From Amphiscolops sp. MND2022 (Eukaryota), in assembly GCA_964187785.1 (NCBI GenBank), contig OZ076409.1, forward strand, positions 34,474,001 through 34,538,000: a stretch of 64,000 nucleotides of DNA, written 5' to 3'. The first letter of the stretch is position 1; each line of letters opens with the position of its first letter. The notes beneath the pieces were generated by a model that had not been told where the DNA came from, did not search any database, and was given only the letters and a program-made list of their open reading frames with translations. Position numbers and translations under genes: made by a program. Of the stretch, positions 45,228 through 64,000 are shown piece after piece.

Positions 45228-48200
45228 TGATGATGGCTGATAGTTTGTTTGAAGACGGTGTTGGGAAGTTCAGTCGTGTCCTTTTCAGTGGTAAAGATAA
45301 GGATTCCGCATACTTCCAAGAACGCTTTGATGCTCGTATGTATTGTTTGAAGCTGTTGGATGTAATGGAACGGTGCGTAACTGCGAATAAGATAGAACAA
45401 AAGTTGAGAGAAGGAACTAATCAGAAGGACGTAACAAAGCAAAGGAGAAGGCTGAAAGTATGATGAAAGATAAGAAAAAAATGATCTGGTGTGAGTTGGT
45501 TCAGGCGTTAGACAAAACTAATGTCTTGCAAAGGCGACGGACCGAACGCTTGGGAGGTACTACAAGCAAAGTACAAAAGTTATGAAGTTATGAGAGACCG
45601 CGACTGCAGCAGTTAATAGAGAAGCTAACAAGTCTGCGGAAGTTGCCGTCGGAGAACATAACTGAGTACATATGTCGCGCGGAGGCATGTCAGAATGAGT
45701 TGAACCAAGTTGGAGAAGCTGTAAAAGAGAAAATGTTAGTCGGAATGGTTTTGAAGGGACTCCCACGAGAGTAGGAGACGTTCGTGACATTGGTCAAGTT
45801 CAGTTGTGAGTCCAAGAACCTCGATGAAATCAAAAGAGACCTGATTAATTTTGAGAGTGACAGGAGAAGGAAGATAACGGGCGATGTCAGCGATTCTATA
45901 TTGTACGTAGGAAAATCAACACGAATCATATGCTATAACTGTAACGAAGAAGGTCACAAAGCAATCGATTGTCGCAACCAAAATAGTGGTTTTGGTCCAA
46001 CTGTCACGAGAAAGGTCATATTACCAAAGGCTGTAGAGCCAAACCACATGGCAGCCACGAAAACAGTAACCAAGGTTGTAGTAGGTTCTGCTCATGCTGA
46101 AGAAGAAACGGCCATACGGTGCAAAACTGTTTCCAGAAAAACAAATCAATGAGAAATGACATCATTTGTGGCAAATGTAAAAGAAAAGGGCATGAAGCGG
46201 AGGATTGTTTTAATCGCAAGGCAGCGGAGAAAGTGAGTTTCATTGATGATGAGAAATTTGAGGATGGAAAACACGAGTTCAGTTTCTTCACAAACCCTGT
46301 TTTTGTCATCGCTTCACGGTGTAGTTGAATTACATGATAAAAGATAAACATTTTTTCGTTGATTTGGACGAGAACGACTATGGTGCTTATGAATGTGCTC
46401 ACGATACCAATACTAAAATAGAAGGCGGAGGAAGAGCTGAGTTCTATGCAACCAAGTGTGATGATGACTTTGCAAAAATTATTACCAAAGACGCGCTGTA
46501 TACATCAAGTAATGGTCAGAACCTGTTATCCGTAGCCAAGTTGAAAGAAGCCGGTGCTTCTTTTCATTTTGCAGTGCGCGATGAGATAGTAACGAAGGAT
46601 GGAACCATTTTTGCGTTGGAACCAAGAAATAACATGTTCATTTGGAGAACAGTAACCAATCCCGCAATTGACATGGATAACATCATTGTAACCAGAAGGA
46701 ACAGTGTTTTGCATCAAGTCTGAAAGTTTGGCATTAGCGCCTGGGAGATACTAACCACAATGAATGAAACGGTTGTTAGACCATGTCGAGGGGATGAAGA
46801 TAAGTAACAAAAATGAAGGCATTTGCGAATGTTGTGAAACAAACAAAACCAAAAGAAGGTCGGTACCAAAAAATACTGTTACTCGTACAACTGAGGTACT
46901 CGAAATTGTTCACACGGATGTTTTAGGTCCTATTGCGAAATAGTCACCTGAGAACTTCAAGTATGCAATTGGTTTTGTGGATAGATTCTCTCGATTCATC
47001 AAAGTGTACTTCATGAGAAGCAGGGATGAAGTTCTTGAAAATTTTCAGCAGTTTTGTTCTGAATTTGGAAATCCACGCATGGTTGTCAGTAATAGTGCAA
47101 AGGAATTGACAGCTTCTGATTTCAGATAATTCAGTCGTAAGCGTGGAATAAGACATGAAAAATCGGCACCTTGTACCCCTGAGAAGAATGGGAAAATTGA
47201 AAGAGTCTGGGGAACAGTGGTTGGAATGACAAGATGTATATTAAACAATGCTCGTTTGGGGAAATTATGGTGGCCGGATGCACTTAATTATGCATTTTAC
47301 GTGAAGAACTACTGTTTACATTCTGCAATTGGCATGACACCATATGAGCGCATGTACGGAGTGAAACCCAATATTGAATTTTTGCGGACATTTGGATGTA
47401 CAACCTACATCTTCAATGAGAAGCAGTTTTGTAAGAATCTGGACAAAACAGCGGAAGTCGGAGTGTTTCCAGGCTTCAGTGATAACTCCAAAACCTAAAT
47501 CGGAATACTAAAAACAGATAGATCACTGAGAATCATACAATGACGAATCGTTAGATTCGAGGAGGAAAAGATGTTTATGAAGCAACATGAAATATATCGT
47601 CCCAGTTCATCAAGTAACCACACTATGGAGAAAACCAAGTTTCATCACATGACATCGAACCAAATCCAATCAGCACTAACGACATTAACCCTAATAGCCA
47701 CGTCAGTCGAATTCAAAGTAAGTCAAAAATTGACGAGCAGTTGGAAGGAACTCTATTTTGAATGAAAAAATACCAAAATGTGTCAACGAAGCTTTGAAGG
47801 AACCAAGTTGGGTGAAAGCAATGGAAAACGAACTCCAATCATTGAAAGACAATAAAGTGTGGGATCTAGTGAAGCTACCAGACGGGAAGAGTTCAATCGG
47901 CAGTCGTTGGCACTTCGCAGTGAAGTTCGGACCGTATGGAAAGCCATGTCGACATAAGCCAAGGTTCGTGGCAAAGGGATTTAGTCAACGTGAAGGAATT
48001 GACTACAATGAGACATACTCTCCCACCGCTCGCTCGTCAACAGTTCGGGTAATCATGAACATTGCTGCACAAAATAGTTGTGAAATAAAGCAGCTCGACA
48101 TCAAGACAGCCTATTTAAACGCCAATGTCGATACCGACATTTTCATGAAACAGCTTGAAGTTTTCGAGGAGAAACGTCCCAATGGAGAAAAACTTGTTTG

Positions 48201-48350
48201 TAAGTAGAACAAGAGCTTGTATGGTCTTAAACTGTCTGGCAGAAACTGGTACTTTACGTTCAAAGCTTTTCTAGAAAAAATTGGTTGTTGGATGTGTGCA
48301 TGACAGTTGTTTGTTTAAGAGGCATGTTAATGATTGTGTAAATTCTGTTG
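45228..48350 (+). mobile_element. Degenerate Ty1/copia LTR retrotransposon internal region
   Basis: Gag CCHC knuckles (CYNCNEEGHKAIDC, CGKCKRKGHEAEDC), integrase (HTDVLGP, VDRFSR, NGKIER) placed before RT (WVKAMENELQSL, RFVAKGFSQREGIDYNETYSP, QLDIKTAYLN); many stops and frameshifts; no LTRs identified. Confidence 0.92.
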
Positions 48351-50518
48351 TGTGTCATTTCACGTCACATTTTGAAAATTTAAAAGCGTCTCACCCTAAT
48401 TACCCAGTGAATAACTTTACTGCTTTACTGCCCTACTAAAAACCAACATTTCTGAAAGTTCTTTTATTTTTAAAAGGATTCTACTTCAATAAGTCGCATA
48501 GTGCCGGAAAAGCTAAAACTGACCATCTATGCTCTCAAGACGCTGTTGTTTTTGCTGAAAGTCAAAGGAGAGGGTTTAGGTTTGGAAGAAAATCCAGAAA
48601 AAGTCGCATAATGTCGAAAATTTTCTAAAGGGGGTCTTTGGTATCCCCTTATTTTTGCAAACATGAAACTTTTCTTCTTCAGTGCGAGAGTCGAACCCAC
48701 GTAATTTTCCTTCTTTCCTTCTTTGGCCGGGAAAAATCCGTGTTAACCACCAGTCAAAGTCCAAGTCCAAATGTCGATGAAAAGTTACTTGAGAAGTTGA
48801 AGCACGTTTGGTAAAACCACTTTGGACAAATTAGGTGTATCGAAAAAATCTGACGGAAAACCATGACTATAGTCGCTCTTTTCTACAAAAAAACACCAAC
48901 TGAAAAACGGAACCTGTAATGAGTTTGCCTAAATTCGCACCATCTTTTACAAATGAACGTGAAGTGAATCTCCTCACAGCAAGCTGAAAATGGTCAAGGA
49001 ACTGTCCGTTTTGGGCTGTGGGTCCCTGTGACTTTGTAAAGGCAAGTAGTGACAGATCGCTTGACGCGGCAACAGAGATGGAGGAACCTGCAACGAACGG
49101 CATTACGCCCGGTGCTGGCACATATCCGCAACAGATCCATTTTACCATATGGGTGTCGCGCCCGGAAGGTCCCAATGTCGCGCCTCAAAAAGGAAGCTCT
49201 CCGACCGGTCCCAATTTGTAACTGTTGTTAGTAACGGGCATCTTCCTTTTGTCTTTTCAGGAACAGTTTACACAGCCTTTAAAAACGTTCCAAGAATAAT
49301 CAGTATAGTTTTCGTCTTTCAGGGTGACATGGGAACAACGTTTAAAATTGCAAAAAGTGGCCCGAGAGCTAGAAAATACAGCTAATAAAAGTACATAGAA
49401 GCACGCATCGAATCTGCAGACCACACAGCTACAAGTTAGCGCGCCAAGAACCGAAAAAGGAACCTTAGGCAAAAAGACTCGTTTTTCCGGTTTTCACCAT
49501 TTAGGATAGTATAATGCCAAAATGAATAAAAAAAGGGTGTTTGCTCATAGAAAAGAGCTTTTCAAAGGCTTTCACAATCTCTACAGGCTCTCAAGTTATC
49601 TCGTTTTCGGTGTTCCTACTCTGTCTGCTCTCGTGCTCGTTCTCTTTTCAAAATGGTGAAAACCGCGAAAAGAGCAATCCCATGCTTGGTGCCACGTCAC
49701 ATATCGGATTAGAATTTTTCACCAAACTTCTTCCTATTTTAATTTCGACTGATTGTGTATCAAAGGGTGCATTTACACTTGCTCAAGGTCTGTTCCTTCT
49801 AGATATTTTTCTAGTTTAATGCAAACATTTTTTTCATCTGATTAGAAATATTAACGTTGAACTTCTTGTAGTCAACTAACGAACTGAAATGTTTTGCAAA
49901 ACAAAAAATACAGGGACCTTCATGGAACATTTGTGCAAAATTTCCATGCAGCTTGGAAAAGTTTGCAAGATTTCCAGCCTTGAAAAAAGTGTTTGAGAGC
50001 CCATAGAGCTTGAAAAATTTTCAAAAAAATTGCTTCATTCCATTAATTAAACGCTGAAAATGCAATAAATGCAACAATGTTCCACCCTCAACCTTGACCA
50101 TTTACAGAAACGAGTGTTTTCTTTATTCTGAATACTAAATCTAGATCAGCTCAATTAAAAAATTGTTTTGCTAAAAAATCCTTGAAAACACACAATCGCA
50201 TATGTCAAGAGATTTACGATCACATCAAATTGATCAACATTGAAATCATTCTTTTCATCACATTTGCAAACAGAATTTAGGAGAAAAACAAGCGAATAAA
50301 GGCGAAACAGGCTAGAAAAGCCAATAGTAGAGAGAAGAGCAGAATACAGAGCAGGTTGCAGGGACGATGACAAAGTAGTATGGGAAATCCCGATACGGGC
50401 CACAAAAACCCCAAAAATTAAAAGTCCTCAAAACCATTGATTTTAAGCACTTTTTAGAAAACAAATCATCAAAAATAGTGTTTTTACCATGAAGCAAAAA
50501 TTCACTAACCTCTATGAT

Positions 50519-50674
50519 GCGCGAAGCTACGCGCGAAGCTACGCAATGTGTAATAATAACACGTTGCTGTACAGCCAGCATTAATGCACAACCAACGTTA
50601 ATGTACAACCAGCATTAATGCACAACCAACGTTAATGTACAGCCAACGTTAACGTGCAACCAACGTTAATGTAC
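50519..50674. repeat. Short tandem repeats in the probable left terminal region
   Basis: GCGCGAAGCTAC x2; ~32-bp unit CAGCATTAATGCACAACCAACGTTAATGTAC(A) x2-3. Confidence 0.8.
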
Positions 50675-50719
50675 CGGCGCATACATTATTCTTATATAAC
50701 TACAACTAACACATTTTTG

Positions 50720-50965
50720 TCTCCCATAGCTTAGTGGTTATAGCATTGACTAAAGTTAAGGCTTCGGCCGGAGTGTTTGGGGTTCACTTCTATCCAACGT
50801 CCCCCAGTCTTTGTTACAACTTACATGCTATGGGAGAATAATCACCAATGGCACAGTTCTTAAAAAGGATAATCCCTGCTGTGGAAACTCTTAGTGGAAC
50901 GGACTCCCGATGGGCTTTGAGTTTACCATAGGCATGTCAATACCAATGGCATGCCTATGGGTTTT
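50720..50965 (+). ncRNA. Predicted tRNA-like / Pol III-type structured RNA cassette
   Basis: TATATAA at 50693; A-box/D-arm TAGCTTAGTGGTTATAGC; cUUCGg hairpin; B-box-like GGTTCACTTC; 11-bp closing stem 50720-50730/50827-50837; 14-bp hairpin 50926-50960 followed by TTTT. Confidence 0.55.
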
Positions 50966-51048
50966 GTATTTTTACCACATGGGAAATAATTTTAACCACG
51001 CACAGCTTCACACAACATTAATACACAACAATGAAAAATAACTAATAA

Positions 51049-51468
51049 ATGGAACAGCTTCACAATTACCTCTCATTCAAAGATTTTGTTGAAAAATATG
51101 GATTAAAAAACGAAGCAACTTCCAATGTAAAAATAAAAGAAATACTTAATGAATTAAATATTCCATGTGGAATATACATGAGAGATGATAAGTTTAACAC
51201 TACCAGTGGTATAGTTAACTTACATCCCTCAGTGGGAACACATTGGGTTATGTTTACAAATCAAAATTATTTTGATTCATATGGCTGCCCACCCCCAACT
51301 AATATACTTAATCATATTAAAAATGGTATTTATTCAGAATATCAAATTCAGACCAACGACAGTTATTGCGCGGCGTATTGTTTATACACACTGTATCTCA
51401 CAAATAAAATTGGGTTCAAAAATGCAGTACTAAATTTATACTACCAAACTTTCAAACTTAATAAATGA
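51049..51468 (+). CDS. Adenain-like cysteine (virion maturation) protease
   Basis: GTHWV (His), YFDSYG (Asp), QIQ...YCAAYC (Gln/Cys) in adenain order. Confidence 0.9.
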   Translation: MEQLHNYLSFKDFVEKYGLKNEATSNVKIKEILNELNIPCGIYMRDDKFNTTSGIVNLHPSVGTHWVMFTNQNYFDSYGCPPPTNILNHIKNGIYSEYQIQTNDSYCAAYCLYTLYLTNKIGFKNAVLNLYYQTFKLNK

Positions 51469-51677
51469 AGAAAATTAATAATTATTCAACTCAATATAAA
51501 ATTATCTCGCGCAGCTTCGCGCCAGCTCTCGCGCACAGCTCCGCAGAACAGCTTCACAATCAAAATCAAAATCATGGAAAAAATTCATCGAAGCCGCATA
51601 AGAAAACATTATCAAAAGATAGGCAAGAATTTATAAATAACATTTCCGCTAGTGGATTCAAACAATTTAATCTATAA
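51465..51677 (+). CDS. Small basic hypothetical Polinton protein
   Basis: Starts in the same ATAAATG context as every other Polinton ORF and fills the gap between protease and penton. Confidence 0.6.
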   Translation: MKKINNYSTQYKIISRSFAPALAHSSAEQLHNQNQNHGKNSSKPHKKTLSKDRQEFINNISASGFKQFNL

Positions 51678-51713
51678 TGCGGAGCTGAGAAAAAAGGATT
51701 TTTTTCCTAATAA

Positions 51714-52727
51714 ATGGATCTATCAAGCTTCGTAACATATGATAAAAAAGAATCTCTTCTTTTAAGTATTGCAAAATCTAATCAAGAAATTGTTGAAAAT
51801 ACTCATTCTAAACCACAAGAAACTCTAGAATTTAAAATGACTAAACAAAAAGAATCTTTCTCATTTGATGTTCCATTACTACTGCCTGAAAAATGGATGA
51901 TGGGAGTAACAAGCCTAGAAGTATACAACACTGTATATAACATTACTGAAAAGAATAACAAACTTGAAATTCTTCTAACAAAACAACAACTCGAAGAGTA
52001 TAGAGTTGACACTGAATTAGTGCCAAAAATAAAGGATTTGTATGAAACATCTGATGATAAATTTATAGAAAAAACTAATACACTTATAACTTATAGTTAT
52101 ACTAAAAAGAAGAAAAAACTTACTAGAAAAGACTTTAACCAACTCAAGAAATTAATTGAAGTTTTTAACTATCCTGATCAACAAATACATATTCCTGACT
52201 TTGAAATTGAACATGATTCCTTTGGAATACAACTAACACCAGGAGCATATGAATTAGTTGATATCAATGCTTCCGTAAAACAAATAATTAATGAAAGTGA
52301 TTATGATTTTAAATTCAACATAATACCCGACACAATATCAATGAAATCAGTTTTAACAACCTCAAATCCTATTCATTTTAACTCCGAACTTAACAAAGTC
52401 CTGTGTTTTACACAACGTGATTACCCATCCGGAACTCACACTTCAGAAAAACCAGTCATGATAACAACCACCGACAAAGTTCATCTGAAGTGCGACTGTG
52501 TAGATGGTTCAATTGTTAATGGTATACGAGAGCAAATTTTATTTTCTTTCAATTTAAGCGCACCTCCCGGATATAAAATTATAAAAGAACCCACAACTGT
52601 TTTGTACAAATCAATTAACAAAACACGACTGGACACCATCCAATTTTTCCTTGAGGACTCTAATCATGATTCAGTTGATTTCAACGGGGAGACACTCACC
52701 TTCACAATTCAAATTATCAAAATATGA
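51714..52727 (+). CDS. Minor capsid protein (penton-like)
   Basis: C-terminal beta-rich motif LKCDCVDGSIVNG...FSF...PGYKII.EP...Y...LED...VDFNGE as in Polinton minor capsid proteins (recognised by eye). Confidence 0.7.
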   Translation: MDLSSFVTYDKKESLLLSIAKSNQEIVENTHSKPQETLEFKMTKQKESFSFDVPLLLPEKWMMGVTSLEVYNTVYNITEKNNKLEILLTKQQLEEYRVDTELVPKIKDLYETSDDKFIEKTNTLITYSYTKKKKKLTRKDFNQLKKLIEVFNYPDQQIHIPDFEIEHDSFGIQLTPGAYELVDINASVKQIINESDYDFKFNIIPDTISMKSVLTTSNPIHFNSELNKVLCFTQRDYPSGTHTSEKPVMITTTDKVHLKCDCVDGSIVNGIREQILFSFNLSAPPGYKIIKEPTTVLYKSINKTRLDTIQFFLEDSNHDSVDFNGETLTFTIQIIKI

Positions 52728-52756
52728 TAGGATTTAATACAATTTTTTTCTAATAA

Positions 52757-53278
52757 ATGAGTTATAATAAATTTATAAATAATTCATATTGTGTTGGCGG
52801 AAAACATTATTCTCCCACCACAAATGTTCATGGAGAAATTACAAACACTGGGATACAGATGGGCAGGCCCGTACACACATTACGTGGCAACTGTGTAGTG
52901 TGTAACAGAAATAAGAGTCTAATTGTATCTGAACGAACAATAGAGGGGGAAGGATTGGGAGACTTCTTTAAACATTTAGGTTCTGCAGCCAAAAATGTTG
53001 GAAAGAAAATACTCAATAACCCAGCAAGAGCTCTAGAAATAGCAGCAAATATTGGAACTGCAGCAGCAAGTAAAAATCCACGATTAATTGCCGCAACTGC
53101 CCCCGATGTTATTAAATTTGTTCATCAAGGGAAGGGCCTATACAAAGCTGAAGCATTGTCGAGTAAAGGCGGAAGCTATCGCAGCAAAGCAGGTAACACA
53201 AGCAGCAGCAAAACAAGCAACACAAACCGAAAAGCAAGAACTAATGGTAAAGGCCTGTATCTGGGGAAAATCCACTAG
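52757..53278 (+). CDS. Basic virion core / pVI-like protein
   Basis: N-terminal Cys motif (YC..H...CVVC), then IEGE|G followed by amphipathic GLGDFFKHLGSAAKNVGKKIL. Confidence 0.6.
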   Translation: MSYNKFINNSYCVGGKHYSPTTNVHGEITNTGIQMGRPVHTLRGNCVVCNRNKSLIVSERTIEGEGLGDFFKHLGSAAKNVGKKILNNPARALEIAANIGTAAASKNPRLIAATAPDVIKFVHQGKGLYKAEALSSKGGSYRSKAGNTSSSKTSNTNRKARTNGKGLYLGKIH

Positions 53279-53304
53279 TTATATGCATTAATTATACTTA
53301 ATAA

Positions 53305-54366
53305 ATGTATTCAATTCACACCCGAGATGACTTGGAAAAATTAAAAAAATTACAAGAAACAAAATCCTTAATTTTTAAAGAAAGATTAAAAGAGAAACTA
53401 GGGAAACAAGACTTTCATTATGACCTTGAAGAAGTTTTTGAACCTGTTACTACAAAGCAGGTAGAATCAAATGAAAAACAAATACAAGCACTACATGATT
53501 CTACCCGCGAAGCTTCGCGCGCAGCTTCACAAACAGTACAAGCAATAAAAAATCAAACACAGGCTATTCGAGAATCGAGTAACGCTTTGAATAAAAATTT
53601 ACAGAAATCAATTAAAGAAGGAATACAAGAATATGATGAAATTACGAATCGTAATAATCAGCTTCTTACGAGTCTTGTTACTTCCAATCAAGTTGATTCT
53701 AGTATTGTAAAAACAGTTTCTAATTTACTTAATGACAAAAACAAAAGCCAATTTAGTTTAGAACCATTTATACAAGACTATCCAAATATATTCATAATTA
53801 ATCCCCATAACCCACAACAAGTACTAATCAAAGGTTCAACAATGACTTTCGAGAATGGGAATTCATACAATTTAAATGATCCAGATCTTCAACATTTTAT
53901 AACTAATACACAATTTGACAAACAAATAAATAACTGGGGTCCAATTTATAACTTCTTAAATGATATGAAATATGATCTAAATTATGGAGATAAAAAATCA
54001 TACAGATATCAATTTATTAAAGAATTGTATAAATATATGCAGGGCTTCACTCAAGGCTATGCGGGGAGCTCTGCGACAGCTAACGCGACAGCTAACGCGA
54101 CAACTCCCACACAGGACTACACACAGGGCTTCACAGGAAGTGGATTGCGCGATAGCTATCGCAAATATTCACAACAGTACATTTTCCTCCCATCTGACCC
54201 AGACGAATTAGTGGATAAATTGAAATTACTTTATTTTGAAAAAGTTGGAGGAAATGATAGTTTTCTGATTAATGAACAAATTATTGCAATTATAGACAAG
54301 TTATTGGAGTATGAATGCATATCACCTTCTCAACACCAAAATATACAAAGCAACTTAATTACTTAA
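53305..54366 (+). CDS. Conserved Polinton hypothetical protein (coiled-coil)
   Basis: Coiled-coil N-half; C-terminal LPSDPDELVDKLKLL...GGND...EQIIAIIDKL motif typical of Polinton proteins; also present in the relic. Confidence 0.8.
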   Translation: MYSIHTRDDLEKLKKLQETKSLIFKERLKEKLGKQDFHYDLEEVFEPVTTKQVESNEKQIQALHDSTREASRAASQTVQAIKNQTQAIRESSNALNKNLQKSIKEGIQEYDEITNRNNQLLTSLVTSNQVDSSIVKTVSNLLNDKNKSQFSLEPFIQDYPNIFIINPHNPQQVLIKGSTMTFENGNSYNLNDPDLQHFITNTQFDKQINNWGPIYNFLNDMKYDLNYGDKKSYRYQFIKELYKYMQGFTQGYAGSSATANATANATTPTQDYTQGFTGSGLRDSYRKYSQQYIFLPSDPDELVDKLKLLYFEKVGGNDSFLINEQIIAIIDKLLEYECISPSQHQNIQSNLIT

Positions 54367-55479
54367 AGGATCAGTTTGTGGATTAAAGATCTTGTAATTT
54401 GGATTAGATTCATTACAAATCCTGTACCTACTCCCATTTTTATCTTCCAATCTGTTTATTAAAAGGTAGTTGAATTTTTCGTTCCATGCTTCTCTACACA
54501 AACTTTTGAATTCCTCATAAGACATATCAAAACCTGATATGTCCCTATGAATATGTTCTACATCTTTCAGTGTTTGTTGAAATAAAATTATGATATTACT
54601 ATTGTTTCTAACTGTCTTTTTTGGTGCATCAAAATAACTCTGACATAAATAATAAACATCACAAGATTTGTGTCTTCCCCTAGTAAAAAATGGATCAATC
54701 AATTTCTGGTTGGAGTCTAACATATCATCAAATACTACACAACATCCCCTATACTCTTCCAAATCCCCCACATTTTCTTCCACACTTACACCACCAATAT
54801 CATTGCGTAGCTCCACATCCTCATATTGTTCCGGACTCCTTGTAATGATACGAATTTGTTTCTCTGGATCTTCCAAACGAATCAATCGTAATTTATTCAA
54901 CAACAAATGAGTCTTACCACAAAATGATGGGCCAACTATTAATGTTCTATTAGTTTCGTTCGCGTTAGCTCCCGCATTATCATCATTAGCGATAGCTTTC
55001 GCGTTAGCTCCCGCAGGGCTATTCACGAAGCTCTGCACACCGTTATTAGCATTAGCTCCCGCGTTAGCACCCACATTATTATTATTATTACTGTGTGAAG
55101 GGGTGCCTCGCGAATAGCCATGCGGGAACTCCCGCTGTAGCTCTCGTGATAGCTGTTGCGAATAGCCATGCGGAAGTAAATCATACAGAGCCCCGCCCCC
55201 AGTATGCTGATTATAATTATATTGTTGATTATACTGTTGATTATAGTGTTGTTTTTTAATGTGTGACCTTAAATAACTTTTATTTAATTCCTTATTACAA
55301 AATTCACACCTCACCTTTTTATTAAAACACACTTTGCATGAAGAGTACGTTCTGCCATTTTTGTATGAATAAAAAGTATTACAATTCTTCAAAGTTTCAC
55401 AGTCTTTACATCTTTTTTTACTAGAGCAATCATCACATAAACTTTTTTCACTACTTTTATTACAAATTAAGCAATTCAT
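54355..55479 (-). CDS. A32/FtsK-like DNA packaging ATPase with N-terminal Cys-rich zinc domain
   Basis: Walker A GPSFCGKT, Walker B VVFDD, RGRH, R.N; multiple CxxC pairs at the N-terminus. Confidence 0.9.
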   Translation of the reverse strand: MNCLICNKSSEKSLCDDCSSKKRCKDCETLKNCNTFYSYKNGRTYSSCKVCFNKKVRCEFCNKELNKSYLRSHIKKQHYNQQYNQQYNYNQHTGGGALYDLLPHGYSQQLSRELQREFPHGYSRGTPSHSNNNNNVGANAGANANNGVQSFVNSPAGANAKAIANDDNAGANANETNRTLIVGPSFCGKTHLLLNKLRLIRLEDPEKQIRIITRSPEQYEDVELRNDIGGVSVEENVGDLEEYRGCCVVFDDMLDSNQKLIDPFFTRGRHKSCDVYYLCQSYFDAPKKTVRNNSNIIILFQQTLKDVEHIHRDISGFDMSYEEFKSLCREAWNEKFNYLLINRLEDKNGSRYRICNESNPNYKIFNPQTDPLSN

Positions 55480-55499
55480 TTATTTAGTATTATTTAGTA

Positions 55500-55896
55500 A
55501 AAAATCACTAAAGTTTCACTAAAGTTTCACTAAATACCTCTCAGTATCACTATGTAATCACTAAGGTTTCACTAAGCAAATTTCACTAAATCACTAAGAA
55601 TCTCTAAGAATCTCTAAGAATCTCTAAGAGTATTTTATTTCTCTAAGATTAGAGAATATAGTGAAATTTAGTGAAAATAATGCTCTTAGTGAAACCTTAG
55701 TGATTTAGTGAGAAATTTAGAGAAATTTAGAGATCACTAAATAATCACTAAGGTTCCACTAAATAATCACTAATCACTAAATAATCACTAAATAATCACT
55801 AAATAATCACTAAATAATCACTAAATAATCACTTAACATTATTTACGAAGTTCCTACGAAGTTCCTACGAAGTTCCTACGAAGTTCCTACGAAGTT
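55500..55896. repeat. CACTAA/TTAGTG-based direct and inverted repeat region plus (GAAGTTCCTAC)n
   Basis: Perfect 20-bp inverted repeat 55557-55576/55685-55704; AAATAATCACT tandem; GAAGTTCCTAC x4-5. Confidence 0.9.
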
Positions 55897-57110
55897 CATA
55901 GCTTATTTTTAGTAAAACTTTTTGCATGCTCATAAATTAAGTTCTTGAAGCTCTCTTTAACTGAGTCACTAATTAGTGGTTTTTGCATACGCTCAACGTA
56001 GTTGTCTATTTTGGATTCATTCACTTTAATGTTATTTTGTTTGCAATAGGCTACATAATAATAAGCTATGTTGTGTGGTGTTATTTCAATTGTTTGGTCG
56101 GACATTGCCTCTAAGAATATCTTCAATTTGTTGTAATCATCACCAGTGAAAAAGTAACTTTCATAAGCAACGAGTTGTTCTGGACCCCACTCACTTCGTT
56201 TGCTCGAATCATAAATTAACTTGTACTTGTTGTTTAGAATCTTGTATTTATGACTCCTTGTGTCCAGTTCAATAATACCAAATTCTAACTGATCGCGGTA
56301 GTATTTCCAATTAAGCCCATTAACTGCGTCAGCTTTCGCGGAAGCTAACCCATAAGTTTGTACTATCGACTCGAAGAAGTTATCTGGGTTATTAATTGTT
56401 AAGTATATTTTGAAACAATTTTCCCTCACGACTGGAAGAACATCCTTTGCATAGTGAGCAAGGTATATCACTTGAATCCCCAAGTGTCTACCATATCTAA
56501 ATAAGTCTTCTACTTTTGTTTTAAGAGTTTTGTATGCACCTGCATCATCCAGTACAACAATTTTATTAGCAAGTAATTCAATACTAACCTTCTCCAACTG
56601 CAGTAGTGGTACAAAATTTTGAGAGGGAAACTCACATTCATCTCGCCCAAAAACTACGTAAGTTCTTTGATTTCGGGCGTGAGCTGTCGCTAAATAATGC
56701 TTTAAAAAACTTGTCTTCCCAGAGCCACTACTACCATAAATTATGAAGTGGGAATTATTGTGTGGGGATGCTTCGCGGGATTCTTCAATTGTATCCTGGG
56801 GGACTTCTCTTTCCTGGTTTGTCAGATGAGAGTATTTGAACCCTTCAAATTGTTGTAGTTTTTTATAAATTTTTTTAAAGGACATGGGGCGAATATAATT
56901 CCAATATATTACAACAATAATACCTATAAATATAATTAAATATGCAATAAACATAGGATTTGTGATTACTTTATAAAGTTGTGTTTTCTGATACCAATAC
57001 AGTTTGTTGGCTCCTGCGGTAGCTCCATCGGCTCCCGCGCCGTCTCCTGCGCCAGCTCCTTCACCTTGATAATTATTTCTATAGCTCTGCAAGCAATAAT
57101 CATTATTCAT
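55896..57110 (-). CDS. Second A32-like ATPase with N-terminal transmembrane helix
   Basis: MFIAYLIIFIGIIVVIYW; GSSGSGKT; VVLDD; RYGRH; VREN. Confidence 0.85.
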   Translation of the reverse strand: MNNDYCLQSYRNNYQGEGAGAGDGAGADGATAGANKLYWYQKTQLYKVITNPMFIAYLIIFIGIIVVIYWNYIRPMSFKKIYKKLQQFEGFKYSHLTNQEREVPQDTIEESREASPHNNSHFIIYGSSGSGKTSFLKHYLATAHARNQRTYVVFGRDECEFPSQNFVPLLQLEKVSIELLANKIVVLDDAGAYKTLKTKVEDLFRYGRHLGIQVIYLAHYAKDVLPVVRENCFKIYLTINNPDNFFESIVQTYGLASAKADAVNGLNWKYYRDQLEFGIIELDTRSHKYKILNNKYKLIYDSSKRSEWGPEQLVAYESYFFTGDDYNKLKIFLEAMSDQTIEITPHNIAYYYVAYCKQNNIKVNESKIDNYVERMQKPLISDSVKESFKNLIYEHAKSFTKNKL

Positions 57111-57144
57111 TTATTTATAAAAAATTGTTATAAAACTATAATAA

Positions 57145-58047
57145 ATGAATCAAAAAAAGAAAGAAATTGTTAAAGAAATCTTCTCTCCTGTAATTAAGAA
57201 GTTTCAAAGAATTCAAATACAAACTCACTATAAAGATGAATGTTGGAGTATTGATCTAATTGATCGCTCAAGTTTAAGCAAATACAACAAAAACTACAAG
57301 TTTATTTTCACAATAATTGACAACCATACTAAATATGCATGGGCGATTCCCCTCAAAGATAAATCAGGAAAAAGTACGACTACTGCATTAAAAAGTCTCA
57401 TTGAAAAAGAGAAGAGAAAACCACACAAAATTTGGAGTGATAGAGGTAAAGAGTTTTACAACACAACATTTTTACACTATTTAAAAGAGCAAAACATTCA
57501 AATTTATTCAACTAATTCAGATTTAAAAGCTGTTTTTGTTGAACGTTTCAATAGAACACTTCTGGACTTAATCAAAGAACCGATGTATATTGAGGGTAAA
57601 GGTAACTGGTTGAATCACCTTGATGCTGCTTTGGATAAGTATAATAATAGGGTGCATGGTACAACAAAAATGACACCATTTGAAGCCAGTAATAACAGTT
57701 TACTTCCTAGCAATAATAATAATAACAATAAAGTTCCGCGCGATAGCTACCGCGATAGCTACCGCAGCTTCGCGCAAAGCTTCGCCAAATTCCAAGTGGG
57801 AGATTTTGTAAGAGTTCCTGACAAAAGGAACATTTATTCAAAAGGTTATACAACAAATTGGAACAGAGAACTTTTTAAAATACACAGCATCAACAAAACA
57901 AACCCAGTAACATACACTTTAAATGATGAAAACGGAGATATTATTCAAGGAAAATATTATGAACAAGAACTTTTAAGAAGCATATTCGACTTTGACTCTA
58001 ACAACAAAACTTTAGAAAGTATGAATATTTTCCACAAATTTGAGTAA
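57145..58047 (+). CDS. Retroviral-like (rve) DDE integrase
   Basis: WSIDLID, IIDNHTKYAWAIPLK, WSDRGKEF, VERFNRT. Confidence 0.95.
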   Translation: MNQKKKEIVKEIFSPVIKKFQRIQIQTHYKDECWSIDLIDRSSLSKYNKNYKFIFTIIDNHTKYAWAIPLKDKSGKSTTTALKSLIEKEKRKPHKIWSDRGKEFYNTTFLHYLKEQNIQIYSTNSDLKAVFVERFNRTLLDLIKEPMYIEGKGNWLNHLDAALDKYNNRVHGTTKMTPFEASNNSLLPSNNNNNNKVPRDSYRDSYRSFAQSFAKFQVGDFVRVPDKRNIYSKGYTTNWNRELFKIHSINKTNPVTYTLNDENGDIIQGKYYEQELLRSIFDFDSNNKTLESMNIFHKFE

Positions 58048-58126
58048 TTTGCGGAGCTTTCGCGGAGCTTTCACAGGGCTTTCGCGGAGCTTCCGCGATA
58101 GCTTTCGCAATAATTTTTTATTATAA

Positions 58127-59389
58127 ATGAGCGCAGCTTTGCACACAGATATGTTTTCTTTAAAAAATAAATACACTCTTGAAAAACCTATTCATAAAAT
58201 TAATTTTATAAAGTATAATCCTAGTAGTTTAGCGACAATTAACAATACAAACTCCAGTATTTCAATTAGTTTGCCAAGAGAAGATGCATACATATGTTTA
58301 CAAAATAGTTTCATAAGTCTAGAATTTGAAGTACTTAAAAACAATAATACAAGATATGCTGATGGTGATGAAATAAGCCTCGTTAACTTTGGACCAATCT
58401 CTCTATTTAGTGAAGCCAAATTAACAACAAGTTCGGGGAAACACCTAGAAAAAGTTGACAATTTGCACTTGATTTCTTTAATGTATAAACTTCTGACAAG
58501 CACTAAATCCACAAGTGAGTTGTTGTATGGGTTTGAAGAAAGTACTAGTGTCAGAAGACAAGAACTAACAAACAACAAAAATGAGAAAGGAACCTTTTTT
58601 GTGAGAATAAAACTAAAAGATTTGTTTGGATTTGCTGATCAAGAAAAAATAACTTATGGGTTGGGCTACACATTAACTCTCAAACGGAACACTAACAATG
58701 ATGCGATTTTAAGAAGTGTTGGAGTGGATGCTGCAAAAGTGGTTATTAAAGACATTGGTTGGTATATTCCACACTATGTTCCATCACTGGAAAACCAACA
58801 ATTTGTCATGGACCAAATTTTAAATAAAGATCCAACCGAAATATTTTTCACAGAACGAATTATTTTTAGAAAAGATGTTAACACAAATTCGAATTGGACA
58901 TTTGAATTAGGCAGCGCGGGCGGAAATAGCAACAATGAGTCCTGTCCAACTTTTGTGATTGTTGGATTTCAAGCTAGAAATAAAATTGATTCTCAGGTTC
59001 ATGACAACTCTGTATTTGACCGGTTGCCAATTAGTAATGCTGTTTGTAAAATAGGATCAGAAAAATATCCCGATGATGGAATAGAATGTGACTACGACCG
59101 CGACAAATATGATCAAGCATACAGTGAAATAGAAAACTTCTATCACTTACATTCTGAAACTCATCTGCTCAATCCCTTCATTGATTTGCACAAATTCAGA
59201 ACAAAATACCCCCTATTTGTATTTGACCTCAGCAAACAAAAAGACCAAATAGCTTCTCAACCAATCCGTTTAGAATTTAAATTTAATGCTGCCATTGATG
59301 TAGCAAATTTTGTGGCTTATGCACTTGTATTAACCCCAAAACTAATAAGTATTAGTAGTGATGGGCAAAGGCATTTTGATTTAATATAA
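58127..59389 (+). CDS. Major capsid protein (double jelly-roll, predicted)
   Basis: 420 aa, beta-rich, P.FVIVGFQ, YP, LFVFDLSKQ pattern and Polinton context; fold not verified. Confidence 0.75.
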   Translation: MSAALHTDMFSLKNKYTLEKPIHKINFIKYNPSSLATINNTNSSISISLPREDAYICLQNSFISLEFEVLKNNNTRYADGDEISLVNFGPISLFSEAKLTTSSGKHLEKVDNLHLISLMYKLLTSTKSTSELLYGFEESTSVRRQELTNNKNEKGTFFVRIKLKDLFGFADQEKITYGLGYTLTLKRNTNNDAILRSVGVDAAKVVIKDIGWYIPHYVPSLENQQFVMDQILNKDPTEIFFTERIIFRKDVNTNSNWTFELGSAGGNSNNESCPTFVIVGFQARNKIDSQVHDNSVFDRLPISNAVCKIGSEKYPDDGIECDYDRDKYDQAYSEIENFYHLHSETHLLNPFIDLHKFRTKYPLFVFDLSKQKDQIASQPIRLEFKFNAAIDVANFVAYALVLTPKLISISSDGQRHFDLI

Positions 59390-59583
59390 TATTATAATAA
59401 TGTGATAACTAACGTGCTAATAATGCTAATAATGCTAATAATGCTAATAATGATGATAATAATGTTATGTTAATGTTATGTTAATGATATTGATAATAGT
59501 GTTATAATAAATGATAAATATAATTAGCTTCGCATAGCTTCGCGTAGCTTCGCGTAGCTTCGCGCAATCATAAGAGATGTGGG

Positions 59584-62500
59584 TCACAATAAATGGGCTC
59601 GATCACTTATCAGATTTAAAAGGTCTTGATGATTCAATTTTTCTTTCAGAGTCCAAATGTTATAGTATATTTCTTCATCTGTTTTATTTGCTGTTAATTC
59701 TTTATAATACAAGCCAACTAATTTTATACAAAGTATACAAGGACAATCACCTTTTTGTGTGTGTTTATCCCATGATAAACTTTGTATTGGATTCAAGTAC
59801 ATACGCTTGTCATCAAAAGGATTCAAAGCTAGCTTATCTTGTTTCTGAACAGTTAAGTTGTGAGCATTACTTCTAATAGAATAATTAGTTGCAGTTGTTG
59901 TTTCAGAGTTAAATAATGAATTTATAAATTGTGAATAAATTGGTGTATGTTGTATTCCTTTTTGTTTTGATTTTTGAATTGTTCTTTGCTTTGCCTCTTG
60001 CGTTAGCTTTTGTGCTGAGCCATAGCTAAAAGAATATGATTTAGATCTCAAAGCTACGAAGTTGTCTAATTCAATAATTGGTGATGTTTCTATTTTCATT
60101 TTACCTATAACTTTCTTGTTGATTGAGTTGTACAACTCATGACTTGGGTCGAGCTCGCTGAAATCAAAATCATCTTTGAAGTACTCCAAATCATTTATAA
60201 GGTCTCCAGTTTTAATACTTAGAATGAATGAGTCTGTATCCATGTAATGCAGTTTAACATTCGAACTGTAGTATGGTTGTAATTTGTGATAATAAAACTC
60301 ATACATTAACAATTTACTCAGTTCTAAAACACTAAACCCCAAGTATATTGGTTTATCAAAAATTACTTTTTCCTTATCAAACTTGTAAGCACTGAATTCG
60401 GAGTAATGATTAGTGATTCCTTTAAAGCTTAACTTCGATTGTCTTTTTATTATTTGATCAATATTGGTGTGGGGGATAAACTCTAAATTAGTCCGTTCTC
60501 TAACATTTTCCATAGTCTTGCCAAAGAAAGCGTTGTTCATTAATTTGTACAAATCCTTCTCAAAGTTTGTTTTTGCTTTGGTGCGTTTTTGTGTGTTATG
60601 ATTAATGTATTTTTCTAACCAAAGTGATTGTTTGAACCGGTAGATTGTGTGAATCTTTGTTACTTTCATTCCAATCTGTGTGTAAAACTTGAACATCCTG
60701 TAGTGCATCATATAATTATATTTGTTTGTTAGGTCACACATAAGTTTCTCGGTTGGTTTGTAGTTGGGTTGCTTTACACTGTTCATGTATTCTGAGAAAA
60801 GATTTGGATCGGCTTTTGTTTGATAAGGACAAAGTGGAAAGTTTTCGGTTTTTTCTTTAATTTCTGCTGGATATTCTAAATCACATTCTATAAAGTATCC
60901 ATATTCATTATTGTCTGGAATAAATCTCAAATCTTCTACTATTTGTTCTATTTGCGTAGCTTCGCGCGTAGCTCCGCCGTACCCTTGTGATAAATCTAGT
61001 TTTTCGAATTCACTTGTAGGAAGGTATTGACTCATTGCCCATCCATACAAGTTATTTGCATCAATGTACAGTAATTTAGTATTTTCATTTGACTCAATGA
61101 ATCTGGGTCCCATTACACTTGAAATTCCTCCGCGAATATTATTTTCAAGTAGTAATAATAACTGTTTGTCTTTTATGAAATCTAATTTAATTTTAGTAAG
61201 TTTTAAACCAGCTTTCCATGTATAACCAGGTAAAGAGTAACTGTACAACGGATTGATGCCGTACATAAGAGTGCTTGTTTCAACAAAGTTTTCGAACACG
61301 TCAGTGAGTTGTAGTACATCCATTTTTAAATATAACATTGTTAATTCTTGTGCTGTTGTAATGTTGTAAGTGTCAATCAATTGTTGGGTTCTTTTTATAT
61401 CATCCTCGCATGGGTAAGATTGATTCAGTGTTGACCAATAGTCCTCTTTTGTTAGATTTAGATTTAGTGGTTCATGCAGGTTGTTAAGATTGAATTTTTC
61501 GTATGGATAAGCTAGTTTTTTCTTAAATAAATCATCAGTTAGGCCCTCGTTTTGCATATAAGGAAAATCATTTAATGATGTTATAAGTTTTTGTAGACTA
61601 CTACTCAAAAATCTGTATGAATCTAAAAACCTTAAACAACCTACTTGCACACTTACATAATTTTCCATTGACTTTGGGATTATTTTTGGTTCACACCCCA
61701 TTTTGTAAGCTTGTGTTAAGAGTTTTTCAAAAATTAAATGACAATCATAACCACTGAAATTATGGAAAAAGATAGGAACAAACGAACTTGACTTTTTTTT
61801 ACAATTTAAATTACATTTGTTGTGGGCTGCTCCTCGGTACTTGCCTGTAAGATGATCATGATCTCGAACTTTATCATTATCGAGTGGATTTTCACAAAGC
61901 CAACACACTTTGGATTGTTGAAATGATTCTTCTTCTTCGGGGGTTATTTCAAGAGGTAAATTTGTTTCAAAATAGTTACTAGCAATGTTTTCTAGAGTCA
62001 ACATTTCATTTACAAACCATGTTACACACGGTTCACCAAAGTATGAGCTGTAATTATTACCAAATGGTGAAATTATATAAAACCCTACTGCAATTGGAAT
62101 TTGTTTAAATAATACTTTGGGCGCAGCTTCGCGGTCACCTGTTGGTTGATTAATACATTCAAAATCTGCATATACTCTTATTGGTACGGGAACTTTCATA
62201 TGATAATCTTCGAACTTTAAGTGATCCTTCCAACTGAATGTGATATTAGTTGGTTGTTGTTTTATACATCTTTCTATATGATCAAGTAGAACTGGTTGTG
62301 AACTAAATGTAGTTAGGCATCTTCTACACACCCATTTCATGTGCGAATCTTTATTTAATAAACAATGCAGTTTTGTTATTAAACAATAGTGATTTTGATA
62401 CAGCATTAAATCTATTTGTGGTTGATCATAGTTTGTGTTAATATGAATTGGTGTTAAAACTGTTTTTGTGAGTTCAAATACATTTACGTTTAAATTATTT

Positions 62501-63426
62501 AAGTTTTCAAACTTGGGAATATCTTTAATTTTCATGGGGAATTCTAAACCATTTGAAATGAGTTTGTTCAGATTCATTGAATAACTTGATGTTCTATTTT
62601 TATGATCCTCAACGGGAAAAAGGTGTGCTAGGATACACCATAAAAAACAATATTGATCATCATTTTTTATATTTATAATTGATTTATTATTCTTATATTT
62701 TTCTGGCAACTCAACCCATGAAGAAGCTTGAATATCATTGACTTTATATACCTCCATTATAACATTGACAATACCGTTTAACACAAAACCTGATCCTTCT
62801 AATTGTTCATCATCTAATTTCTGCATTAATATGTTGTGAATATTTGGGTTTGTGCCGAAGGCAGTCTGTGTGTGATTGTAATTAAAATCTGATTTAACCC
62901 ATTTGTGAAATACGTTTTCTTCTCCATTAACTATTTTTGAAAACTTAGCTAAATAACTCAATTGGAACTTGTATCGGGGAAAGAAGCTAGTTTTTAGTAA
63001 ATCATTAATCTGTTCTTCAAGATGATTTGTTGGATTTACTCTCAGTTTAATGTATGTTTTTTCATTCACAATTATTTCTACACCAGTTCCTACGTTAGTT
63101 CCTACGTTAGTTCCTACTCCATGTAGTGTATTGTTTATAGCATTATTCTGACTTCTTAACGTGTGAATTTCACTTTGAAAATGTCTTGAATTACTTATAT
63201 ATTTACCACAATCTTCACACCAAATTTGTGTAGCTTCGCGTTGTTGTTTGGTTTTGTTTTTATGTTCATCTGAATTCAGATGATTAGACTTGTCAGACAA
63301 TGGCATAAATGTATTACATTTTTTACAATAATATTGATTTAATTTTTGTAAATGTTTTATTGATTTTAGATGATCGGACTTGTAAGCTTTTTTATAATCA
63401 GAATTACAAATACTGCAGTTCTCCAT
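59584..63426 (-). CDS. polB: Protein-primed family B DNA polymerase with N-terminal zinc fingers
   Basis: YADFE, FHNFSGYD, YIDANNLYG, KLMNNAFFGK, YMDTDS; endonuclease-VII-like insert CWLC..RDHDH.TGKYRGAAH..CN. Confidence 0.97.
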   Translation of the reverse strand: MENCSICNSDYKKAYKSDHLKSIKHLQKLNQYYCKKCNTFMPLSDKSNHLNSDEHKNKTKQQREATQIWCEDCGKYISNSRHFQSEIHTLRSQNNAINNTLHGVGTNVGTNVGTGVEIIVNEKTYIKLRVNPTNHLEEQINDLLKTSFFPRYKFQLSYLAKFSKIVNGEENVFHKWVKSDFNYNHTQTAFGTNPNIHNILMQKLDDEQLEGSGFVLNGIVNVIMEVYKVNDIQASSWVELPEKYKNNKSIINIKNDDQYCFLWCILAHLFPVEDHKNRTSSYSMNLNKLISNGLEFPMKIKDIPKFENLNNLNVNVFELTKTVLTPIHINTNYDQPQIDLMLYQNHYCLITKLHCLLNKDSHMKWVCRRCLTTFSSQPVLLDHIERCIKQQPTNITFSWKDHLKFEDYHMKVPVPIRVYADFECINQPTGDREAAPKVLFKQIPIAVGFYIISPFGNNYSSYFGEPCVTWFVNEMLTLENIASNYFETNLPLEITPEEEESFQQSKVCWLCENPLDNDKVRDHDHLTGKYRGAAHNKCNLNCKKKSSSFVPIFFHNFSGYDCHLIFEKLLTQAYKMGCEPKIIPKSMENYVSVQVGCLRFLDSYRFLSSSLQKLITSLNDFPYMQNEGLTDDLFKKKLAYPYEKFNLNNLHEPLNLNLTKEDYWSTLNQSYPCEDDIKRTQQLIDTYNITTAQELTMLYLKMDVLQLTDVFENFVETSTLMYGINPLYSYSLPGYTWKAGLKLTKIKLDFIKDKQLLLLLENNIRGGISSVMGPRFIESNENTKLLYIDANNLYGWAMSQYLPTSEFEKLDLSQGYGGATREATQIEQIVEDLRFIPDNNEYGYFIECDLEYPAEIKEKTENFPLCPYQTKADPNLFSEYMNSVKQPNYKPTEKLMCDLTNKYNYMMHYRMFKFYTQIGMKVTKIHTIYRFKQSLWLEKYINHNTQKRTKAKTNFEKDLYKLMNNAFFGKTMENVRERTNLEFIPHTNIDQIIKRQSKLSFKGITNHYSEFSAYKFDKEKVIFDKPIYLGFSVLELSKLLMYEFYYHKLQPYYSSNVKLHYMDTDSFILSIKTGDLINDLEYFKDDFDFSELDPSHELYNSINKKVIGKMKIETSPIIELDNFVALRSKSYSFSYGSAQKLTQEAKQRTIQKSKQKGIQHTPIYSQFINSLFNSETTTATNYSIRSNAHNLTVQKQDKLALNPFDDKRMYLNPIQSLSWDKHTQKGDCPCILCIKLVGLYYKELTANKTDEEIYYNIWTLKEKLNHQDLLNLISDRAHLL

Positions 63427-63548
63427 TTATTTATAATAAATTTATGAATTTAATGGCAGCATATTTTGTGTAGCTTCGCAATAGTATATTTTTCAATTAT
63501 TAGTGTTAATTTTTATTTTATTTTTTATGTTAAAATTGAATAAATTAA

Positions 63549-64000
63549 TTATAAAAAATTGTGTGGTTTAAGTGGTATTGTTGGTGGTGTGTGTGAAGCT
63601 ACTTGTGATTTTGTATGCGAAGCTGTGATTTTGTGTGATTTTGTGTGAATTTCCTGTGAAGCTGTGTTAGCTGTCGCGTTAGCTGTCGCGTTAGCTGTTG
63701 CGTTAGCTGTTGCGTTAGCTGTCGCCTGATAATATTCAAATTGAGTCACAAATCGATGATATTCTTTTTCATCTATACAGTTGTCTTTTAGGCTAGTGAC
63801 ATAAAGTTGTCTAAAGTCGTCAAGAGTCTTCTGAATAATAGTGTACTTAAGTTTATAATTTTGCTCCTTTTTCTTCAAATAACTAGAACAAATCTTAACA
63901 AGGATACCAGTTGTACAACCAACTCCTGCAGCGATTGGAACAACTATAATACCCACACCAGTAATACTTAGTGAGATTGATGCTGAAGTTGTTCCAATCA
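63549..64000 (-). CDS. Hydrophobic/TM Polinton protein, 5' end outside the window
   Basis: Frame stays open to the window edge (IGTTSASISLSITGVGIIVVPIAAGVG); homologous remnant at 929-1200. Confidence 0.75.
   Translation of the reverse strand, partial: IGTTSASISLSITGVGIIVVPIAAGVGCTTGILVKICSSYLKKKEQNYKLKYTIIQKTLDDFRQLYVTSLKDNCIDEKEYHRFVTQFEYYQATANATANATANATANATANTASQEIHTKSHKITASHTKSQVASHTPPTIPLKPHNFL

Follow-up and report, generated by a model that had tools for sequence, protein, structure and literature searches.

Polintons are annotated by their proteins, and their terminal inverted repeats (TIRs) are seen as replication and integration signals. Among Pol III RNAs, vault RNAs and EBERs have a tRNA-like A box in the terminal stem together with upstream elements. 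Adenovirus VA RNAs are Pol III transcripts that inhibit dsRNA sensors. In the account of VA RNA in PMC7589676, the A box is likewise part of the terminal stem, and a tRNA gene is given as the presumed origin of the RNA. TMERs, as outlined in PMC4838037, are 200–250 nt long and consist of a tRNA-like element with downstream hairpins, which are processed by tRNase Z and Dicer. Ordinary tRNA genes, detected with tRNA and Rfam scanners, are described on the genomes of Polinton-like and MELD viruses in PMC12220804 and PMC8502044. In the literature that we searched, with most subscription papers outside the coverage, we found no Pol III or tRNA-like RNA in Polinton TIRs; Tables S11–S12 of PMC12220804, which list ncRNA matches for Polinton-like viruses, may be relevant to how novel such an RNA is. 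Here we describe a strongly constrained non-coding module in Polinton TIRs, which is likely to be a Pol III RNA gene.

A conserved module in Polinton terminal repeats

The window, a 64-kb stretch of DNA, belongs to a 1.07-Gb eukaryotic assembly, presumably of an animal, judging by the type of element described here. The element that begins at position 50374 of the window is a Polinton, as its TIRs, 6-bp target-site duplication, integrase, double-jelly-roll capsid and packaging ATPase show. The duplication, TGACAA, lies at 50368–50373, and the same 6 bp recur just beyond the right end. The left TIR (50374–50969, plus strand) is 596 bp long and starts with AGTAGT; the right TIR, just past the window, is 99.8% identical to it (L005/L111). 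A 17-bp tandem repeat whose copy number varies occupies 50551–50686 (plus strand), ahead of the module described below. The first ORF (51049–51468, plus strand) had no match in a Pfam search, and from its catalytic motifs we take its product to be an adenain-like protease. Further in are a second, weaker A32-like packaging ATPase (54355–55479), an A32-like packaging ATPase (55896–57110, minus strand, PF04665), an rve integrase (57145–58047, plus strand, PF00665), the major capsid protein (58127–59389, plus strand, PF21738) and a 1280-aa ORF (59584–63426, minus strand) whose only Pfam match is Endonuclease_7 and which, by its motifs, is presumably a protein-primed PolB. Tandem arrays of 10–11-nt units and a 21-bp perfect inverted repeat lie between the two ATPase genes (55493–55900). 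A 10–12-nt palindrome (GCGAAGCTTCGC-like) is dispersed over the Polinton from 50517 to 63726, in ORFs and spacers alike, and sister copies show new insertions of it. The Polinton load of the genome is very large, with about 2,850–2,960 capsid candidates and at least two subfamilies that each hold at least 100 near-intact capsid genes. Gene order is rearranged, many copies having an inverted capsid/polymerase block. The window also contains a 748-aa ORF with no Pfam match (21890–24136, plus strand), a 729-aa RVT_1 ORF (27240–29429, minus strand) and copia-type remnants (46334–48207, plus strand).

The first-pass annotation had placed a tRNA-like structured RNA near the left end of a Polinton. 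The Polinton end is correct; the module in fact lies inside the TIR and recurs unchanged at the right end, so that each element carries two inward-facing copies. A 181-nt module query gave 674 candidates in the genome, many of them as inward-facing pairs about 14.5 kb apart, and an internal 16-mer of the module had 452 exact matches versus 0 in the control. Among the first 100 of these 452 matches, 46 formed inward pairs less than 20 kb apart and 54 were unpaired. We examined 48 of the 54 unpaired matches; all 48 adjoin Polinton genes, and none is a solo copy of the kind expected of a dispersed tRNA-SINE with its own duplications and simple tail. The module is therefore neither a free SINE nor a one-off insertion. 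A host tRNA-SINE inserted in a single copy, the alternative that the first-pass annotation had set against its own reading, does not fit a module found in hundreds of Polinton ends.

All module features described below are on the plus strand. Across 100 distinct copies, a set that leaves out 17 duplicate sequences and L174 with its partial, rearranged module, conservation starts at a TATA-like box at 50693, dips at 50712–50718, is near-complete from G50719 and stops at the first T4 run (50962–50965). The conserved block thus extends from the TATA-like box to this T4 run and takes in an A box and a degenerate B box; the unit is about 245–246 nt long, versus the 118 nt first proposed, since both conservation and the first T4 run reach 50965. 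G50719 is invariant (100/100) and is the predicted start of a Pol III transcript of about 246 nt (50719–50965). The T4 run, followed by a T5 run (50962–50973), is the first T4 after +1 and the predicted Pol III terminator. GGTTTT is present here in 99/100 copies; the T4 has an identical flank in 92 and a flank with a one-letter change in a further 3. There is no internal T4 in the module, which counts as weak evidence because 26% of shuffles are likewise free of one.

The module is oriented as the protease and the last ORF are, and it could in principle be a structured 5' leader or IRES for these two terminal genes, both of which read inward. We consider this highly improbable. The block closes with the T-run, both genes are retained in module-less elements, and in one old copy (L115) the module is inverted relative to the protease. 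Moreover, TAAATG stands at the start of 9/9 Polinton ORFs checked (51049–63426), the protease included, with an A/T-rich stretch ahead, an arrangement that we take to resemble poxvirus late promoters.

Divergence was measured from the window copy, and 97 of the 100 copies had sufficient sites. Compared to 4-fold-degenerate sites in adjacent ORFs, module differences were 0.008 versus 0.042 in 77 copies, 0.022 versus 0.131 in 14, 0.041 versus 0.226 in 5 and 0.038 versus 0.30 in 1, that is, about one-fifth in every bin, in young and old lineages, with conservation inflated by the choice of most copies through module similarity. In an unbiased set of 20 ends chosen by capsid gene, the module was present in 17, with 0–5 substitutions outside the loop of hairpin C. 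We also compared 16 old-lineage copies with the window, excluding L115 from this young/old comparison. Their outer TIR is 73% and the region from −100 to −30 only 56% identical, while module parts differ by 1.5–8%, much of this being private decay; the exceptions are in hairpin C, where the 5' stem differs by 12% and the loop by 32%. The 175 nt past the B box, hairpins included, are conserved like the boxes, and the borders of the block are the TATA-like box and the first T4.

The module might instead be the head of a host tRNA-SINE that Polintons captured and carry as a passenger, its copies staying uniform through recombination between TIRs. The genome is indeed rich in tRNA-derived heads with the same A–B spacing (1038 pattern matches versus 11 in the control), and the rearranged gene order of these Polintons would be in keeping with such a capture. 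However, homogenisation is seen in the module but not in the flanking TIR sequence, divergence is 5-fold slower even between young copies, none of 30 tRNA-derived heads of the genome showed body similarity to the module, and the unpaired matches yielded no solo copy. We regard a passenger of this kind as very unlikely.

Some Polintons lack the module. At 4-fold sites of PolB or capsid, the divergence of module-bearing elements reaches 25–49%, a depth equal to that of the module-less subfamily. A midpoint-rooted tree of 24 protease rows, from which L114 and L010 were dropped for their short matches, places module-less rows among module-bearing ones, with a support of only 0.81 at the key node. 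Judged from these sequences, loss of the module is the likelier history. Module-less short TIRs are found in L039 and L044 and at the opposite ends L112 and L113. In a large subfamily with a capsid about 79% identical, a search of the end regions found the module in 0/20 stretches, and this lineage has spread without it. The junction at module-less ends lies at a GCGAAGCTTCGC-like palindrome, which suggests that the palindrome mediates deletions. Since the module is missing in some lineages, it is not essential in cis, and its probable loss in several lineages is easier to explain for a diffusible product than for a cis signal that the element needs.

Promoter elements and tRNA ancestry

The tRNA-like start with an A box that had been proposed is present at 50720, and this site is the one match to an A-box expression in the whole 64-kb window. 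The A box (50727–50737) is nearly invariant, with TAGC in 93/100 copies and AGTGG in 98/100. TATATAA, noted earlier at about 27 nt upstream, is found at 50693–50699; it is exact in 71/100 copies, with AT-rich variants in most others. The B-box-like GGTTCACTTC is likewise there (50781–50790), and its GGTTC core, also nearly invariant, stands at +62 in 99/100 copies. It is degenerate, however, with C replacing the canonical tRNA A58, and A58 is missing from the B box in essentially all copies, whereas a canonical type 2 Pol III promoter has a B box with A58. By analogy with known examples of such promoters, we infer a TATA-assisted hybrid Pol III promoter.

In searches of viral contigs, all matches to the 18-nt 5' motif (5/5) were real tRNA genes, as were those to the 22-nt D-arm motif (3/3), here giant-virus tRNA-Ile(UAU). 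On sequence grounds, the 5' motif and A box of the module are tRNA-derived. None of 10 isotypes stood out as the parent: Arg, Ser, Lys and Leu all gave z ≤2.1, the best z being 2.06, and the B-box position at +62 matches long-variable-arm tRNAs in geometry alone. The module was also considered as a tRNA proper and rejected. ARAGORN found 0 tRNAs, Rfam gave chance matches only, and a cloverleaf with a 7-nt anticodon loop and T-arm is absent, the corresponding fold being 16 kcal/mol worse than the preferred one. Unlike the tRNAs of Polinton-like and MELD viruses, the module has no anticodon loop, and ARAGORN and Rfam are blind to it. It resembles vault RNAs and EBERs in its upstream element and in a tRNA-like A box predicted to lie in a terminal stem, and differs from them in that Rfam yields no match up to E = 10 and the B box is central, not in the 3' arm.

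Two further sets of tRNA-related sequences were seen in the genome. tRNA-Lys(UUU) genes form a tandem array with about 193-bp spacing and many anticodon variants (G000:C7:5.23–5.34 Mb, L077–L106). An unrelated family of 371-bp LTRs (527 candidates; L199–L213, e.g. L203/L205, G000:C9), is found as direct pairs 7–9 kb apart. Its LTR contains, 49 nt in, a tRNA-derived head whose B box is intact; similarity between this head and the Polinton module is limited to the A box. The sequence ahead of the L205 LTR presumably corresponds to a BEL/Pao integrase end, and the family may represent a Helenus-like head on a full-length LTR element.

Since tRNA genes can have barrier activity, the two tRNA-gene-like promoters for Pol III, one per end, could act at the DNA level, as a chromatin boundary or local activator against silencing, with the RNA as a by-product. 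The symmetric placement at both ends and the near invariance of the A box and GGTTC would suit such a role, as would the tRNA-derived heads in terminal repeats of LTR elements, both in the family just described and in Helenus (PMC10886601). A DNA-level role would nevertheless not account for the conservation of the 175 nt that follow the B box and contain the hairpins, and it would most need a strong B box where the module has a weak one. We think it rather unlikely. The TRIMp3 elements Helenus, Cassandra and Ajax, as presented in PMC10886601, are similar to the module in having a small-RNA-gene-derived Pol III promoter in the terminal repeats of a mobile element, and the Helenus box signature (TRGCY, YGG, GGTTC) is found in the module. 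According to the same source, the proposed role of the TRIMp3 promoter is to produce the template for retrotransposition, which a Polinton, as a DNA element, does not require; the module further differs in its conserved, terminator-bounded structured body.

Predicted fold

The first-pass annotation had proposed a cloverleaf-like fold. When constrained to it, the 5' domain (50720–50837) reaches −27.7 kcal/mol, compared to −43.5 kcal/mol for a rod, and the D-stem and anticodon-like stem have pairing probabilities ≤0.02. The predicted rod begins with 11 bp between 50720–50730 and 50827–50837, the latter being the 11-nt complement of the 5' start that had already been recognised. A 5×5 internal loop follows, then inner helices of 9–10 bp (50736–50745/50812–50821) and 4 bp (50748–50751/50806–50809). 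The rod closes a central domain that includes the GGC-UUCG-GCC hairpin (50760–50769), another feature of the earlier proposal that held up. The A box lies partly within the terminal stem, with pair probabilities of 0.76–1.0. For other proposed pairings the letters are present and the structure is not favoured: the TTGAC/GTTAA (50746–50759) and GGAGTG/CACTTC (50770–50790) stems have pairing probabilities ≤0.02, and TGGGG (50778–50782) with CCCCA (50802–50806), suggested as a pseudoknot, reaches about 0.29 as a nested alternative and shows no covariation. With a rod fold and no match to a tRNA covariance model, a tRNA mimic is not the favoured description.

A conserved single-stranded linker (50838–50850, exact in 90/100 copies) separates the 5' domain from three predicted hairpins, A (50852–50883), B (50885–50924) and C (50926–50960). 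Hairpin C has 14 bp, and its stem is kept while its loop varies in length and sequence. The linker has a 9-mer in common with a tandem array (7 copies) inside the element; this 9-mer is absent or single in other lineages, and we dismissed it as chance. The 5' domain folds with z = −3.7 (0/200 shuffles as stable), the 3' half with z = −3.8 and the whole unit with z = −4.4.

Natural variants were compared with both folds. A50728G and C50828T leave G–U pairs at base pairs unique to the rod, C50817T (18 copies) repairs the sole mismatch of the rod's second helix, and T50731C (15 copies) would disrupt the cloverleaf D-stem. Among paired-site variants common to at least three copies, 5 keep and 2 break pairing, compared to 10 and 42 among private variants (Fisher p = 0.009, for copies that are not independent of one another). 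Random placement of the same 12 shared substitutions broke 3.3 pairs on average, versus 2 observed (P = 0.31), so the signal of structural selection is modest. Pair counting gave 96.0% paired for the rod and 96.8% for the cloverleaf, with covariation no better than in shuffles. Among 15 copies, no two-sided change was found in the 5' domain for either fold. Hairpin C has one, in a single copy (L167), and this could have arisen by palindrome correction; palindrome insertions lie mostly in loops and linkers of the module, the exception being L186/L187, in the 3' arm of hairpin C. Altogether, a VA-like long terminal stem accords better than a cloverleaf with energy and shared variants in these models; the rod is a predicted structure for which comparative support is modest.

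The 5' domain also folds as DNA (−37.5 kcal/mol), and its minus strand folds about as well as its plus strand (z −4.0 versus −3.8). Polinton replication proceeds via displaced single strands, and a fold located in the terminal repeat might be a cis-acting ssDNA structure or protein site for replication, integration or packaging. Wobble-type variants, however, favour one strand: measured against the window's partner base, 6/7 shared variants stay paired on the plus strand and 2/7 on the minus strand. A cis-acting structure is also difficult to reconcile with the short-TIR elements that lack the module at both ends, in close relatives as well as in the large lineage, and it would make the A and B boxes, TATA-like box and T-run coincidental. 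We judge it decidedly unlikely.

In outline and size the module resembles the TMERs of murine gammaherpesvirus 68, which the account in PMC4838037 presents as 200–250-nt Pol III units with a tRNA-like head, downstream hairpins and a T-run. It might thus be a small-RNA precursor from which the tRNA-like head is removed and the hairpins or terminal stem are diced; VA terminal stems are described as Dicer substrates (PMC7589676). Against this, the stems of hairpins A–C have only 6–14 bp, short for pre-miRNAs, and the cloverleaf and T-arm needed by tRNase Z are not favoured. Such a precursor seems unlikely. The virus group of the TMERs is also an unrelated one.

A candidate trans-acting RNA of Polintons

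With adenovirus VA RNA I/II, as described in PMC7589676, the module shares Pol III-type internal boxes, an A box in a long terminal stem (predicted for the module), a complex central domain, a likely tRNA origin and a DNA virus lineage related by PolB and capsid. The differences are equally specific. The module has no match to an Rfam VA model at E up to 10 and is about 245 nt long, compared to about 160 for VA. The VA U4 terminator ends the terminal stem, whereas the first T4 of the module comes 125 nt further on, past three hairpins; the VA box B lies in a long apical stem, whereas the degenerate B box lies in a weakly defined central domain. VA has a GGGU–ACCC pair, and in the module GGGT is present (50780–50783) with no ACCC in the 5' domain. 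Finally, the module sits in a terminal repeat, in two inverted copies. The module is not a VA RNA, a tRNA or a member of another Rfam family.

Searches beyond this genome were made with the capsid and with a module model, R1. No relative turned up when viral contigs were queried with the capsid. Ten metagenome loci with capsids 44–48% identical are 1–3.6 kb long, too short to span element ends, and R1 had no match in them; a 52%-identical capsid used as query returned the same families only. Over 48 sources R1 matched the window copy only, and with filters off over 12 loci its best match, at 21 bits, was to AT-rich palindromes and is taken as chance. An OAS1_C search was blank, as was its control.

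A Polinton-borne, structured Pol III RNA, as originally suggested, is the reading that our models support best, in an amended form: the predicted RNA is longer, has three more hairpins and lacks two features that define VA RNA. We consider it probable that the entity under selection is an RNA. Whether its product works in trans as an intact structured RNA we see as evenly balanced, and we place the same weight on the full statement that the module is a Pol III gene for a folded RNA of about 245 nt that acts in trans for the Polinton.

Under this trans-acting model, host Pol III would start near G50719, steered by the TATA-like box, the A box and the weak B box, and would stop at the T4/T5 run, sparing the terminal genes from read-through. 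The A-box region of the transcript is predicted to fold back into a 26-nt imperfect double-stranded stem, followed by the three hairpins. While the element is active, such an abundant, double-strand-like decoy could occupy host dsRNA-binding or RNA-silencing proteins, and the two copies per element would set the dose. We propose the decoy role tentatively. Slightly more doubtful is the broader idea that animal Polintons, like adenoviruses, derived a VA-type Pol III RNA from a tRNA gene to counter host RNA-based defence, with the TIR doubling the dose and module-less lineages free-riding in trans. If true, this would be evidence that polintoviruses face antiviral defence as true viruses.

The module is a non-coding block under tighter constraint than the Polinton's own proteins. 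Laid out as a Pol III gene yet missed by tRNA and Rfam scanners, it would represent a type of gene new to Polintons. It is relevant to the proposal that tRNA genes give rise to viral Pol III RNAs, VA RNA among them, and to the question of whether Polintons live as viruses.
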